Positions 25,945 to 38,438 of a stretch of 52,475 bases of DNA are shown here, one piece after another. Where the stretch lies: positions 1-52,475 of the forward strand of contig DAOPMC010000003.1 of assembly GCA_035392025.1 (NCBI GenBank), read 5' to 3'. This DNA is from Bacilli bacterium. GTDB taxonomy: Bacteria > Bacillota_I > Bacilli_A > RF39 > UBA660. A program made the position numbers and the translations under genes. The first letter of the stretch is position 1, and every line of letters begins with the position of its first letter. The notes under the pieces were generated by a model. It ran no database searches. It saw only the letters and a program-made list of their open reading frames with translations, and had not been told where the DNA came from.

Positions 25945-26151
25945 TTATTTCTCATTTAACCAATCATAATCAAATATTTCTATTGATTTTTCGTTTTTCG
26001 TTTTTAAATGTTCCTCAAATGTTTTCCCAAAAACAAGTAAGAATCCTCTACCTGTTGGTTTATCACAAACATATTTCTTTTGACACTCTAAACAATAGCA
26101 ATCTTTCTCTGGTTTTTTTAAATGACATTTGTATTTCTTCTTAATCGACAT
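25945..26151 (-). CDS. small Cys-rich (zinc-ribbon-like) protein
   Basis: CH..x8..CxC..C..x6..C pattern in 68 aa. Confidence 0.4.
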   Translation of the reverse strand: MSIKKKYKCHLKKPEKDCYCLECQKKYVCDKPTGRGFLLVFGKTFEEHLKTKNEKSIEIFDYDWLNEK

Positions 26152-26506
26152 TTATATTGTAATACTCACCTGCCGATCTATAATATACCGTTTTCGTGGA
26201 ATAATTAAATGGTAATGCTCTAATATGTTTCAATACTACTTCGACAATTATTTTTTCACCAAAATTTAATTTACCTTCTTTTGATACTATAATATCAACT
26301 TTATCTTTTATATTTGAAATAATATTATCAGCTTCAATTTTTGCATCTTCAGTATAACCACCATTTATCTCAATAATTTCTATAACTTTATTTCTAATGT
26401 GAACTGTCTTTTGTTGAACAGCTACTTCTTCTGTAAATAAAAACATACATATCATTACAGTGAAAGATATAAATATGATTAGCAATATATCAAATATATT
26501 TTTCAT
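26141..26506 (-). CDS. N-terminally anchored small protein (TadE/pseudopilin-like position)
   Basis: 121 aa with a single N-terminal hydrophobic helix. Adjacent to platform genes. Confidence 0.4.
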   Translation of the reverse strand: MKNIFDILLIIFISFTVMICMFLFTEEVAVQQKTVHIRNKVIEIIEINGGYTEDAKIEADNIISNIKDKVDIIVSKEGKLNFGEKIIVEVVLKHIRALPFNYSTKTVYYRSAGEYYNINVD

Positions 26507-26508
26507 AC

Positions 26509-27201
26509 CTAAAATTTCACTTCCTCAAACATAGAGATAAACATAAATATTGCCATTCCAAATATCATAACTAACATTGTCAGAATCGTGAAATTCGGAT
26601 ATAACCATAAAAGTCTTTTCTTTGTTTCAATGACTTCCTCTATTTCATTATCATATAATTGAGAAATCATACTCTCAAGCGATATTAAGTGCTTTTTATT
26701 CATAGCGTGTTCGGAAAATGTGTAAAGCAACGTCATCACTTGGTATGATTCTATAAACTCCATATTTCTTGAAAAATTATTAAATGGTGTTATCGTTTTA
26801 TCTACTCTTATTTCTTCTATTAATTGGATTAAGTATTTTTTAATAGGATCATCCGTATATTCAATCATCTTACTTAAAGAATTATATATGTTATTTGTTC
26901 TTATTAATATTAATAATTTTTTTACAAATGATGGAAACATTCTTCTTTTAATAGCAATTAGCTTTTTTCTTCTTTTTTTAGTTGAAAAATATTGATATTT
27001 GTATACACCTATTCCAACAAAAACACTTATTATCATTAAATAAAAATTATTGTAATAATAACCAATAAAAAGACATACAAAGAAAGAAATCAAACTCATC
27101 ATTATTCTATTTTTGAGAGCTTTTTTATAATGTATACCCATCCAACCTAACAAGTTCTTTAAATCTTCTTCAACGAAGAAATTCCTAATTATTGATTTCA
27201 T
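26509..27201 (-). CDS. TadC/TadB-like (T2SS-F family) pilus platform protein
   Basis: Paired N-terminal TM helices, a cytoplasmic helical domain and a C-terminal TM helix. The pattern matches T2SSF-domain proteins. Confidence 0.55.
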   Translation of the reverse strand: MKSIIRNFFVEEDLKNLLGWMGIHYKKALKNRIMMSLISFFVCLFIGYYYNNFYLMIISVFVGIGVYKYQYFSTKKRRKKLIAIKRRMFPSFVKKLLILIRTNNIYNSLSKMIEYTDDPIKKYLIQLIEEIRVDKTITPFNNFSRNMEFIESYQVMTLLYTFSEHAMNKKHLISLESMISQLYDNEIEEVIETKKRLLWLYPNFTILTMLVMIFGMAIFMFISMFEEVKF

Positions 27202-27692
27202 TGCAAACTTCCTATTAATTTTAACTTATGTTTATATATTAAAATATTAATAAAGTTATTCATTTCCGATGCGATAATCCAATTATTTGAATATATAAGT
27301 AAATATCTATTATCTGGAAAAAGCAAATATATTTTCCTATTTAAAATATCAATTCTTATTCTTTCCAATTGATATACTCTTAAATAATTATCTATATTGG
27401 AATTATTTGCCCCAGATAATTCTATCGTTTCAACTGCTTTTCTATCATTGATAATTTTTAAATCTTTACCAACTTTTTTAATTTCCTCTAAAATACATTT
27501 CATAATACTTTCTAATTCATTATAAGTTTCAAAATATAATGTTTTAGTATCTTGAAATGATTTATCTAAAGTAGTAGTAACATTCAATAAATGTAGATCT
27601 ATTTCCAGAAATTTTGACTCGTTTATGTTTAAAAAAACCAATATATCATTTATTGATTTAAAACACATTTTATGATTTATTATTTGTCGCAT
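27198..27692 (-). CDS. hypothetical protein
   Basis: 164-aa ORF coupled in the operon. Confidence 0.45.
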   Translation of the reverse strand: MRQIINHKMCFKSINDILVFLNINESKFLEIDLHLLNVTTTLDKSFQDTKTLYFETYNELESIMKCILEEIKKVGKDLKIINDRKAVETIELSGANNSNIDNYLRVYQLERIRIDILNRKIYLLFPDNRYLLIYSNNWIIASEMNNFINILIYKHKLKLIGSLQ

Positions 27693-36143: not shown

Positions 36144-36404
36144 TTCATCACCATCATTATATATTTTTAAAAAGAAAGAGATAATGTCAACCCATTATCC
36201 CCAAATACATAATACCTAATATTCGCAAATACACTACTAACTAGAATATTACTGTTCATGTGTTAATCTACATAAGTAGAAAGGAATTAAACTTCTTTGA
36301 TATTTTATTTGATATGGTTAATTTTACTCATATCATAATTTTCTAAATGAATAACCGAATGATAAAAATCATCTCTTTATGTTTTCATTATATCAGAGTG
36401 CTCA

Positions 36405-36525
36405 CAAGACAGGACGGAACCCGTTGTTGCTGTTCGGACCACCGTTCGTGTTGTTGAAATTGAAGGCACCAGCATTGGAGCCATTGTTCCAATTGCCACC
36501 GCGAATGAACCACGGATTGCTAGTG
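36405..36525 (-). repeat. DGR template repeat (TR)
   Basis: 121 nt, 106/121 identical to 36768..36888. All 15 differences are at A (coding strand) in this copy. Reads as an AAC/AAT-rich frame. Confidence 0.9.
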
Positions 36526-36740
36526 ACGGAGTTACAGTTTAATCCCTATATTTCACATAGGTTGCTTGAAATACCATTTTTCATTGCCATAACCCCCGTC
36601 AAGCATTGATGGCGATGACCTAAAGTTCATCACCATCTTTCCCTCTACCATTAGTTTAGAGATGAATATTTTGTGTCAGTTCGTTGAATTTTGTTCTTCT
36701 TTTTTTCAAAAGGGAAAAAGGTGAAAAGAACAATTTCACA

Positions 36741-36758
36741 GCAGGACTAAAGCCCTGC
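36741..36758 (-). other. GC hairpin (GCAGG-N8-CCTGC) straddling the target stop codon, 10 nt 3' of the VR
   Basis: Read directly. No counterpart next to the TR. Confidence 0.4.
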
Positions 36759-38438
36759 ATTCACTATCAAGACAGGACGGAACCCGTTGTTGCTGCGCGG
36801 ACCACCGCCCGTGATGTGGAAAAGGAAGGCACCAGCAGTGGAGCCAAAGTCCCAATAGCCACCGCGAACGAACCACGGAGTGCTAGTGTTAGGCATATTG
36901 GTATAATCACCAAACCATCCTAATCCTGTTGCTATTGCATTGCTACTTGTTTCCCATACAGCATCACCTTTTTTATTCACTGTTAATAAATAGTTATTAG
37001 CGTTATCATCAGTTGTATTTTTTGTATATATATCTTTATATTTACTAACTGCATTTATGATTGATGCTCCTTGTCCTGCTAAATTACCATTCGCATTATC
37101 AACATAGGCTGATACTCTCTCCCATGCACTACCAGATAGATCATATATTCCATAAATGTTTCCTGTTGTACTTGCTTTTACTCCACCTGTTGATTCGTAT
37201 GTATTCCTACAGCCATTATAACCACCTTCGGTAGCACTATTAGCTGCACATCCTGTTATATAATTCTGATTATTATTTATATATATTTCTTCAGTATTTT
37301 TACCATAGGTTGATTTACTTAAATATGCTACTGCTCCCCATTCCATGTTTTTCATTAAATGAGTATCTATATTATTAGTATCAGTAGTATAAGTCCCATT
37401 TGCTTGTAATCCACTAGCAGTAGTCCAACCATACGCACTACTTGCTTCCATATTTCTTGATGCTGTAAAGGCATTACCAACATTCATACATCGCCATGAT
37501 GCTACATTTGGTAATACTTGAATTGTTTTTGTTGATACATTATCTCCTGCTATCGGACACGAACTATCACTCGTATATCCATTGGCTACTCCTTCTACTG
37601 CTGTTGCTTCAAATTTTGCTACCCATATTCCTGTTACTTCGGTTCCTGTTCCAAAAGTAAATCCAGAGTGATTTGTCCATGTATTATTTGAAGCATTAGC
37701 GGTTGTATCAGTACTAATGTTGCCAATTGTAGCACTATTCCAATTATCATCTGTTCCTTTTGAAAATTGAACTTCTATCGTTCCTGTGGTATTTACATGA
37801 TGATTTGATGTTATTTTATAAACATATCTTGGTATCCACACCCACATACTTCCATCAGCTGTTTTGGCATTAGCCCATTTTTTATCTGTTGTATTATAAT
37901 TATACCAATCATCATCACTAGCAGTTGTTGTTACCCAAGCTGATCCATTCCACTTAATTGGTGTCATTCCTGCTACTAATTTTGGTTCATTAACCCCTTT
38001 GTTAGAATCATATCCTAATTGATTAATCACAGTTGAATAATTACTACTATCAGTAACACTCATGCTAGTATATGAACCATAAGCTACTAAGCCATCCCAT
38101 TTGTTTTTGCCCCTAACTACAATGTAAGGTTTTCCATTCAAAGTAATTACTTTTATTGTTTCGTAATTATCGTTAGACTGTCCTAATATGTCTGTAATAT
38201 TAGTTTCATTAATGCTTGTTACATCCAACGACTCATTTGTTATCATTTTATAATCCATATCTTTCAATAACATTCTAGCATCACTTTCAAAAGCACCTCT
38301 TGTAGAACTGCTTATTATCCCTAATATGCCGGGAACAGCTATAGCAAGAATTATTGCTAAAATAACTATTACAGCTAATAATTCTATTAATGTAAATCCA
38401 GATTTAGACTTCCAATTAACTCCCATTCCATTCACCAC
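36747..38438 (-). CDS. DGR target protein: type IV prepilin-like N-terminus, central domain and C-terminal CLec/FGE-sulfatase-like fold bearing the VR
   Basis: KSG/FTLIELLAVIVILAIILAIAVPG is a class III (prepilin) signal. The C-terminal half has FGE/CLec-type motifs (IWVAKFEA, YGIYDLSGSAWERV, RGGYW..G). The VR is at the extreme C-terminus. Confidence 0.85.
   Translation of the reverse strand: MVNGMGVNWKSKSGFTLIELLAVIVILAIILAIAVPGILGIISSSTRGAFESDARMLLKDMDYKMITNESLDVTSINETNITDILGQSNDNYETIKVITLNGKPYIVVRGKNKWDGLVAYGSYTSMSVTDSSNYSTVINQLGYDSNKGVNEPKLVAGMTPIKWNGSAWVTTTASDDDWYNYNTTDKKWANAKTADGSMWVWIPRYVYKITSNHHVNTTGTIEVQFSKGTDDNWNSATIGNISTDTTANASNNTWTNHSGFTFGTGTEVTGIWVAKFEATAVEGVANGYTSDSSCPIAGDNVSTKTIQVLPNVASWRCMNVGNAFTASRNMEASSAYGWTTASGLQANGTYTTDTNNIDTHLMKNMEWGAVAYLSKSTYGKNTEEIYINNNQNYITGCAANSATEGGYNGCRNTYESTGGVKASTTGNIYGIYDLSGSAWERVSAYVDNANGNLAGQGASIINAVSKYKDIYTKNTTDDNANNYLLTVNKKGDAVWETSSNAIATGLGWFGDYTNMPNTSTPWFVRGGYWDFGSTAGAFLFHITGGGPRSNNGFRPVLIVNAGL
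36768..36888 (-). repeat. DGR variable repeat (VR) within the target gene
   Basis: Encodes TSTPWFVRGGYWDFGSTAGAFLFHITGGGPRSNNGFRPVL near the C-terminus of ORF 36747..38438. Confidence 0.9.

Follow-up and report, generated by a model that had tools for sequence, protein, structure and literature searches.

The 52,475-nucleotide stretch of contig DAOPMC010000003.1 analysed here (the window), from a low-GC Bacilli bacterium of gut type, holds an integrative and conjugative element (ICE; ~700..40335, 39.6 kb) that carries a conjugative type IV secretion system (T4SS), a secretion ATPase/platform module and a diversity-generating retroelement (DGR). We consider it probable that the DGR is cargo of the ICE and not a part of the mating apparatus, and that it acts on a modular type IV pilin for whose display the host probably supplies the machinery. 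The DGR is read as cargo because relatives of the ATPase/platform module come without a DGR, relatives of the DGR reverse transcriptase (RT) come without the module, the slot occupied by the DGR is variable and the N-terminal signals of the DGR target and of the module's own pilin-like proteins differ. The lack of co-occurrence, the differing signal and the variable slot, along with a precedent in Bacteroides, speak against the proposal of an initial annotation of this DNA that the DGR target is an adhesin of the ICE pilus module which sets the recipient range.

The DGR is a self-contained cassette, all on the minus strand, in the order MutS domain I-like (MSL) accessory gene, target with variable repeat (VR), template repeat (TR), Avd and RT. 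TR (36405..36525) and VR (36768..36888, residues 517-557 of the 563 of the target) form a 121-nt repeat pair with 88% identity in which 15 of 15 mismatches fall on TR adenines, although adenine makes up 29 of the 121 TR bases. A stretch of 27 nt common to the 3' ends of TR and VR occurs at just these two sites in the window, with 0 matches expected by chance, and a sequence search of the window revealed neither a second VR nor a remote target. The RT gene (34750..35793; RVT_1, 7e-19), with YMDD and IGNYTSQ in its translation, lies beside TR and is accompanied by the accessory gene avd (35766..36143; bAvd, 1.3e-24), while the MSL gene (38517..38954; MutS_I, 2.8e-11) is located directly upstream of the target and belongs to a described class of DGR accessories (Wu et al. 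2018, PMC5758913). An MSL gene consisting of MutS domain I only is also seen beside Avd-RT in 19 of 80 related DGR loci (for example L035, L047, L050-L054 and L063). A hairpin with a 7-bp stem and a 4-nt loop (36741..36758), 9 nt downstream of VR and without counterpart after TR, is a putative DGR target-recognition element, with a fold z-score of only -1.9. Codon analysis of the repeat pair gives 17 variable codons, 12 of them AAY, which amounts to ~10^17 possible protein variants.

The target gene (36747..38438, minus strand) encodes a modular type IV pilin-like protein of 563 aa with a C-terminal C-type lectin (CLec)-fold domain (N_methyl, 5.5e-8; TIGR02532, 2.4e-7). Its class III prepilin signal, KSG|FTLIELLAVIVILAI, combines a short charged leader, glycine at position -1, a hydrophobic N-terminus and glutamate at +5 with the cleavage motif KSG|FTLIE, and it is the only canonical class III signal in the window. 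The AlphaFold2 (AF2) model (pLDDT 93.5) displays an N-terminal pilin helix (residues 17-67) and a small head, with strands at 92-130, followed by a C-terminal domain of large size; the helix and small beta-sheet head typical of type IV pilins are modelled at pLDDT above 85. In a Foldseek search with this model the significant PDB matches are solely the three chains of TaqVP of Thermus aquaticus (5vf4), a CLec-fold DGR variable protein (best E 1.7e-8, probability 1.0). The C-terminal CLec-fold variable domain is shared with TaqVP, the best structural match, but the identity is only 15-16% with a TM-score of 0.33-0.48, and the window target possesses in addition the pilin helix and head (model residues 17-139) N-terminal to CLec. 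PilB of Streptococcus sanguinis (PMC8179133) is likewise a Gram-positive type IV pilin with a bulky adhesive module on the pilin helix and head, but the genes for the modular pilins of S. sanguinis belong to the pil locus and show no hypervariability, whereas the target of the window is a stand-alone gene associated with a DGR.

Adenine-restricted differences between TR and VR, an RT beside TR, the accessories Avd and MSL and a C-terminal VR in a CLec-fold target thus characterize the DGR, and the N_methyl and TaqVP matches bear out the initial annotation of a complete DGR with a target that starts with a prepilin signal and ends in a CLec fold. An ICE-borne DGR with the target LdtA occurs in Legionella pneumophila, and MSL-containing DGRs have been classified as architecture D (Wu et al. 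2018, PMC5758913). The window system resembles these in the location of the DGR inside an ICE, a CLec-fold surface target and the combination of MSL with Avd and RT; however, LdtA is a lipoprotein of a diderm, while in the window target a prepilin-type N-terminus provides the anchoring or display.

In the mechanism that we propose, the ICE would have entered the dcw cluster by means of a large serine recombinase, at the second penicillin-binding protein (PBP) gene; its conjugation backbone would pair a Mycoplasma-ICE-like T4SS with a conserved filament core of Tad/archaeal type, and the DGR cassette would sit in a variable cargo slot between regulators and backbone. Adenine-specific mutagenic retrohoming would then rewrite the 17 codons in the C-terminal CLec ligand-binding domain of the target. 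As the signal is of the type IVa pilus/Com type (G|FTLIE), the target is most likely cleaved by a host prepilin peptidase, upon which a type IV pilus or Com-type filament of the host may carry it, or its N-terminal helix may keep it anchored in the membrane. On the surface it would act as a hypervariable adhesin, to the advantage of any host that carries the ICE. The sequence data show the anatomy of the DGR, the fold of the target, how the families are distributed and the synteny, whereas the retrohoming activity, the display route and the host benefit are what we infer from these features.

With respect to the target family, more than 6500 homologues were retrieved, many of them beside related RTs, which makes DGR-diversified prepilin-type proteins abundant in public data. 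For five homologues taken from long contigs, the gene stands alone on a chromosome and the surrounding 10 kb contain neither an RT nor a pilus ATPase, and pilus machinery that could act on the target was seen neither in the window nor within 10 kb in these five contexts; among the scanned open reading frames (ORFs) of the ICE and its flank, none matched the prepilin peptidase family Peptidase_A24. No homologue is present on the 72,556 plasmids of PLSDB, and the 2.9 million viral contigs of IMG/VR contain only two, both weak and distant, so that a phage or plasmid origin of the family was dropped. At their 3' ends two chromosomal homologues (L001 and L006) differ from the window TR at 17-18 of 29 adenines and at 13 of 92 other positions. 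These adenine-biased differences hint that chromosomal homologues without a DGR of their own may be diversified in trans by a DGR elsewhere in the genome, or were so in the past; the wider target family is, or was, DGR-diversified too. Many RT-adjacent targets from gut metagenomes related to the window target (L033-L110) begin with KGITL(V/I)ALV(I/V)TI..LLILAG; this is a pilin-like N-terminus with alanine or serine replacing the glutamate at +5, and it looks as if these targets form a large class that is apparently undescribed.

That the DGR does not belong to the conjugation backbone is suggested by the relatives of the ATPase/platform module, in which the CpaF/VirB11-family ATPase (28685..29803) is accompanied by two platform proteins of 271 and 230 aa. 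Homologues of the ATPase with 35-44% identity were recovered by tblastn on many conjugative plasmids of Firmicutes (Paenibacillus, Paraclostridium, Bacillus and Clostridium perfringens), and the Paraclostridium and C. perfringens plasmids have the same module synteny beside VirD4, VirB6 and VirB4 genes. In addition, 12 genome loci from Bacilli, Erysipelotrichaceae and Coprobacillus metagenome-assembled genomes (MAGs), Bacillus subtilis and Siminovitchia as well as 6 metagenomic ICE relatives were compared, with an ATPase identity of 31-69% overall and of 69% in the six metagenomic relatives. Of the 12 genome loci, 11 have the 230-aa platform paralogue beside the ATPase, as do L023 and L025-L030, and in most of the genome and metagenomic loci surveyed the ATPase stays with a platform paralogue. 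The six metagenomic relatives retain both platform paralogues, a 121-aa gene, a PXO2_28_C protein, a VirB2-like gene, VirB6 and VirB4. The ATPase/platform module is, as judged from this synteny, a conserved part of the backbone in a broad group of ICEs and plasmids of Firmicutes, widespread and under-described.

Co-occurrence was surveyed in 10-kb flanks with tblastn thresholds of E 1e-4 to 1e-5. Among 20 informative module relatives not one (0/20) has an RT, Avd or target in flanks of up to 10 kb, which would cover the distance of 5-8.6 kb in the window. In the reverse direction, 80 metagenomic loci with RTs 40-61% identical to that of the window contain Avd in 76, a CLec target in 44 and MSL in 19 cases, and ATPase, platform, VirB4, VirD4 and PXO2_28_C genes in none (0/80). 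The survey of related ICEs for a DGR along with CpaF/TadBC and T4SS genes, which had been put forward with the mating adhesin proposal, therefore came out negative on both sides. The DGR position itself is variable: the six relatives L025-L030 carry type I restriction-modification or Dnd-associated genes upstream of the regulators, and in the closest named genome (L011) the ArpU-like regulator is immediately preceded by genes for a tyrosine integrase and a macro-domain protein, in the place where the window has the DGR. Two independent assemblies of the closest ICE (L023 and L024, 92% nucleotide identity) both break off at window position 34700, 50 nt beyond the RT stop codon. This fits a boundary of backbone and cassette there, and it suggests that the cassette edge is a junction that varies between strains or contains a repeat.

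A precedent for a DGR as ICE cargo exists in Bacteroides, where ICE-borne DGRs diversify tip adhesins of type V pili and the adhesin is dispensable for transfer (Macadangdang et al., bioRxiv 10.1101/2024.11.15.621889). In both cases a DGR on an ICE hypermutates the ligand-binding part of a pilus-type adhesin, and the Bacteroides cassette spreads horizontally with a functional ICE. In contrast to the type V, FimA-like tip adhesins of Bacteroidota, the window target is a modular pilin whose signal is of type IV, class III, and whose host is of the low-GC Gram-positive type, the window ICE adds a Tad-like module, and the window system is known from sequence alone. DGRs on ICEs (Legionella, Bacteroides) and DGR-varied pilus adhesins of type V (Bacteroides) are hence already known. 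A pairing of a DGR with a prepilin was not found in full-text literature searches, and two large DGR surveys (one of them PMC5758913) do not mention pilins; neither DGRs acting on type IV prepilin-type proteins nor a filament-type character of the 'VirB11' module in conjugation loci of Firmicutes were found described. The theme of a DGR that varies a pilus adhesin would thereby extend from the type V pili of Bacteroides to proteins resembling type IV pilins in Bacilli and related MAGs, bacteria of the low-GC Gram-positive type, and an ICE can carry a self-contained 'evolvable adhesin' from host to host.

The nature of the ATPase/platform module, all genes of which are on the minus strand, has to be considered separately. 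The ATPase (T2SSE, 3.7e-28) matches archaeal GspE (2oap), CpaF and FlaI in the PDB over its full length and VirB11 over the C-terminal domain only, whereas among NCBIfam models VirB11 ranks best (3.8e-38), with 'TadA family conjugal transfer-associated ATPase', FlaI and TrbB also matched and all of them below cut-off. As the matches are spread over VirB11, TadA, FlaI and TrbB, the ATPase alone does not settle the choice between Tad and VirB11. The 271-aa protein (27913..28728) is a divergent T2SSF platform protein: on its own it reaches T2SSF with an E-value of 0.13 and yields nothing at default Pfam thresholds, but 30 of 40 members of its family match T2SSF (PF00482; best 1.1e-5), and the top ten Foldseek PDB matches of its AF2 model (pLDDT 72, moderate) are cytoplasmic domains of EpsF, OutF and PilC with probabilities of 0.9-0.98. 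The 230-aa protein (26509..27201) is assigned as TadB/C-like platform paralogue because it aligns locally with the 271-aa protein within the T2SSF region (E 5e-6), being without a single-sequence Pfam match at default thresholds. Directly after the platform genes follows a membrane-anchored protein of 121 aa (26141..26506; weak DUF4320 match, 0.028), which is syntenic in L010, L025-L030 and pAW63. The initial annotation of a CpaF/VirB11-family ATPase with two TadB/C-like platform proteins is consequently upheld by PDB matches, family scan, Foldseek and paralogy.

One ATPase together with two single-domain T2SSF proteins is, by gene content, the architecture of the Tad/archaeal filament core. 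The module resembles Tad/Flp systems (CpaF/TadA, TadB, TadC, Flp, TadV) in an ATPase with full-length PDB matches of CpaF/FlaI/archaeal GspE type, in the two single-domain T2SSF proteins (271 and 230 aa) expected of Tad, and in a tiny hydrophobic candidate subunit; it differs from them in that profile scans of the ICE ORFs gave no Flp G/XXXXEY motif, TadV, TadZ or recognisable TadE/F and in that its N-terminal motif MSxNTNTLFWVIxGAV lacks a glycine cleavage site. Since this N-terminus has neither a glycine site nor the Flp motif and no A24 peptidase was detected among the scanned ICE ORFs, the module is better said to work like Tad than to be a member of Tad, as far as its sequence goes. The tra region of pAW63, pXO2 and pBT9727 ('VirB11-like' CDS 22) presents the same arrangement of a surface protein, small ORFs, the ATPase and proteins of ~275, 240 and 121 aa alongside VirD4, VirB6 and VirB4; in the published table for pAW63 the gene order is a large surface protein, small ORFs, 'VirB11' of 444 aa and proteins of 278, 250 and 121 aa. 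These and related plasmids differ from the window in that the latter contains an ICE, and they carry neither a DGR nor a pilin-CLec protein.

That the module makes a filament we regard as a tentative yet serious option. According to a rather more doubtful alternative, no extended pilus is formed, and the module helps the T4SS through the thick wall, be it as an energiser similar to VirB11 or as a short pseudopilus or piston, with the N-terminal module of 45 aa described below as a mere anchor or sorting signal. In favour of the latter are VirB11 as the top, though sub-cut-off, NCBIfam match of the ATPase, the failure to find the Flp motif, TadV and TadZ, the VirB2-like pilin that the ICE also encodes and the location of the module always inside tra regions. 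Against it stand the two T2SSF proteins conserved beside the ATPase, as canonical VirB11 proteins are not known to come with T2SSF platform proteins; the protein encoded next to one related Bacillus thuringiensis ATPase is labelled 'FlaJ' by PGAP. The restriction of full-length ATPase matches to CpaF, FlaI and archaeal GspE, and a 45-aa hydrophobic protein accompanied by larger proteins with the same N-terminus, in the manner of a major pilin with modular minor pilins, likewise argue for a filament. Plasmid-dependent pilus-like structures have been reported for pBV71 in Bacillus velezensis; similar B. velezensis plasmids in PLSDB carry an ATPase homologue, and the report is suggestive only.

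Gram-positive conjugation is generally described as pilus-less. Literature searches for a Tad-like pilus in Gram-positive conjugation gave only the 'VirB11' annotation of pAW63, whose type of ATPase is treated in the literature simply as VirB11, and the pilus-like structures of pBV71. According to a 2025 review, VirB11 homologues are universally missing from the T4SSs of Gram-positive bacteria; with the module conserved across the family, it must therefore be considered under-described. If the module does make a filament, it provides a testable handle on how Gram-positive elements find and hold recipients.

The ICE possesses candidate filament subunits of its own, also on the minus strand. The initial annotation had pointed to the small ORFs 26141..26506 and 29999..30391 as pilin-like, but no pilin signature was detected in them by Pfam or NCBIfam, with a weak DUF4320 match only; better candidates are 32972..33109, 22571..23701 and 21989..22570. 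The first heads the putative operon and encodes a candidate small pilin of 45 aa which consists solely of the pilin-like module, has MSENTNTLFWVI and does not contain the Flp processing motif. Its N-terminus, MSENTNTLFWVICGAVIV, recurs almost exactly in a 193-aa protein (21989..22570; N-terminus MSSNTNTLFWVICGAVIV) and in a BspA-type leucine-rich repeat (LRR) protein of 376 aa (22571..23701; LRR_5, 7e-33). Relatives with an ATPase identity of only 62-69% preserve the motif MSxNTNTLFWVIxGAV without change, and the C. perfringens plasmid counterpart of the 45-aa protein has 50 aa and reads MLDQNTDRSWWMIGAVIVGALLIG.

A word-indexed search with the 45-aa query returned only 27 mostly small proteins, homologues of 45-48 aa being 67-98% identical, and an exhaustive profile search among 1.84 billion representatives found the module in 74 clusters, always as residues 1-45 of proteins of 38-375 aa; 8 of 10 longer proteins tested are LRR_5 proteins. 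The module MSxNTNTLFWVIxGAV...FNGLF is also present in L025 (6547-6687, 16431- and 17365-) and L010 (11110-11262), alone or fused to LRR or other domains. The 45-aa module looks like a class of pilin-like or sorting sequences that is undescribed and goes with the CpaF-like ATPase module, and a tiny hydrophobic subunit sharing its N-terminus with larger adhesin-domain proteins is, at the level of primary structure, what one sees where a major pilin is joined by modular minor ones. We infer that the 45-aa, 193-aa and LRR proteins are the ICE's own candidate filament subunits and adhesin, with the LRR protein as the obvious adhesin candidate if the ICE filament has one. The Tad-like module with the 45-aa/LRR protein family is the lead most worth following, independent of the DGR.

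Further candidate mating adhesins are two surface proteins always encoded upstream of the ATPase, a PXO2_28_C-family protein of 627 aa (30381..32264, minus strand; precomputed annotation PF27438) and a protein of 238 aa that is secreted and anchored at its C-terminus (32230..32946). The plasmids examined have a large surface protein at the same place as 30381..32264, and in related plasmids a thioester-domain or Rhs-like surface protein is found at the PXO2_28_C position.

Returning to the DGR, it may be asked whether it is a relic that no longer diversifies, with the VR differences as fossils, which we judge unlikely. The target protein is identical, VR included, in two independent assemblies (ENA ERZ27257452 and Logan SRR5007151), as would be expected of a relic, yet two assemblies are too few for judging activity. 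The reading frames of RT, Avd and MSL and the TR are all intact, and the 12 AAY codons, the shared 3' end, the hairpin and the strict confinement of the differences to adenines likewise speak for a DGR that, from the state of its components, would be currently active.

Several observations weigh against the reading of the DGR as cargo with host-dependent display of its target. The host prepilin peptidase and type IV pilus machinery are presumed, the window sequence covering the ICE and its flank. Archaeal pilins can bear G|F-type signals and the Tad clade derives from archaeal systems, so that sequence alone would leave room for the ICE machine to handle the target. The DGR cassette is located directly upstream of the backbone on the same strand, and co-expression of the two on induction of the ICE is possible. 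Furthermore, the lack of co-occurrence means that the pairing is not conserved, and says nothing against a function in the window ICE; the contigs of the 92%-identical ICE end exactly at the junction of DGR and backbone, short of the place where a DGR would lie.

In the competing proposal the target would be assembled by the Tad-like module of the ICE, or otherwise exposed in mating, and would serve as a programmable adhesin that widens or retargets the recipient range like the PilV shufflon of R64. In the thin pilus of IncI1 plasmid R64, pilV is part of a type IVb pilus operon, is varied by site-specific inversion through Rci and sets recipient specificity. Both systems feature a conjugative element with a varied pilus-type adhesin, the analogy drawn in the initial annotation. 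Its strongest support is shared location and orientation, as three modules reside in one ICE on one strand with the DGR directly upstream of the backbone; also in its favour, the target is genuinely of pilin type with a hypervariable ligand-binding tip, the module is a genuine filament-type core, and the window shows no prepilin peptidase or other pilus machinery that would serve the target. The comparison with R64 nevertheless falls short: the varied gene lies ~7 kb from the ATPase and outside the conserved module, not inside a pilus operon, and has a signal of another class; in relatives the two are not found together, and its variation comes from retrohoming. In addition to the negative surveys on both sides (0/20 and 0/80), the target family is mostly chromosomal and stand-alone, the target signal is unlike the N-termini of the module's own pilin-like proteins, the LRR and PXO2_28_C surface proteins already take conserved positions in the ICE, and the diversified adhesin of the Bacteroides precedent is dispensable for transfer. 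The programmable mating adhesin is a possible idea to which the comparison lends no support, and we deem it very improbable. Equally slight is the chance of a link between DGR and mating in which the family would form a type IV-filament-like mating pilus from the CpaF-like ATPase, the two TadB/C-like platforms, the 45-aa pilin and modular subunits tipped with LRRs, while in the window ICE a captured DGR pilin would be exposed on donor cells, on this filament or on a host pilus, and retrohoming would reprogram the cells to which the donor adheres and with which it mates.

The conjugative T4SS of the ICE is of the Gram-positive Mycoplasma-ICE/CD1110-CD1115 type with VirB4, VirD4, a VirB6-like protein, a cell-wall hydrolase and a relaxase, as initially annotated; domain and NCBIfam matches agree, that of the relaxase being weak. 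On the minus strand are encoded a VirD4-type coupling protein of the CD1115 family (10160..12169; T4SS-DNA_transf, 2.4e-61; NF045973, 1.2e-85, over the NCBIfam cut-off), a MobP-like relaxase (13291..14646; Relaxase, 1e-3; MobP2, 2.2e-8, under cut-off) and an M23 peptidoglycan hydrolase (15468..16328; Peptidase_M23, 3.8e-18). The T4SS core comprises a Mycoplasma-ICE-like VirB4 ATPase (17086..19620; NF045975, the Mbov_0397 family, 1.2e-141 with 473 bits versus a 590-bit cut-off; DUF87 and TraG P-loop domains), a VirB6-like polytopic membrane protein (19901..21304; families pLS20_p028, MMCAP2_0566 and Mbov_0396, with DUF8208 in relatives) and a VirB2-like T4SS pilin of 92 aa (21313..21591; PF18895 T4SS_pilin, 3.3e-6, over cut-off; Mbov_0395 pilin-like family). 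The top NCBIfam families of this core (17086..21591) are those built on Mycoplasma ICEs (Mbov_0397, Mbov_0396 and Mbov_0395), matches that would link the ICE family of Bacilli/Erysipelotrichia-type MAGs to mycoplasma ICEs.

The window has a GC content of 27%, with nearly all genes on the minus strand. The ICE starts with the gene for a large serine recombinase (692..2419, minus strand; Resolvase, Recombinase and Zn_ribbon_recom domains, CcrC/CcrB-like) and interrupts the second PBP gene of the dcw cluster, the position of which we take to be that of spoVD in Bacillus. The N-terminal part of this PBP lies at 40329..41585 and the C-terminal part at 34..~700: the reading stops after 'GQGVSVTPIHL' at ~40335 and picks up at ~700 with 'VTAVSAIVNGGYLYTPYIV' to end in a PASTA-like tail, and ~700..40335 is therefore an insertion. 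The recombinase, the split PBP gene and the T4SS genes confirm the initial assignment of the element as an ICE. The right flank (40329..52475) is chromosomal, with mraZ, mraW, a DivIC/FtsL-like gene, a PASTA-containing PBP, the second PBP, topA, RNase HII and a YlqF-type GTPase. In public data the window contig corresponds to k141_507695 of ENA ERZ27257452, and a 16-kb Logan contig (SRR5007151) has an identical DGR region.

At the head of the conjugation backbone an ArpU/sigma-like regulator is encoded (33207..33698, minus strand; TIGR01637, 2.2e-5), with Sigma70_r4 in relatives. A scan for promoters and terminators yielded 68 sites versus 53.5 expected and is uninformative in such AT-rich DNA. 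A protein of 2182 aa (3609..10157) adjoining VirD4 combines an ArdC-N-like segment with SNF2/ResIII helicase domains and is probably a transferred anti-restriction or helicase protein. The splitting of the PBP gene by a serine-recombinase ICE resembles the recombinase-excised intervening elements found within sporulation genes.

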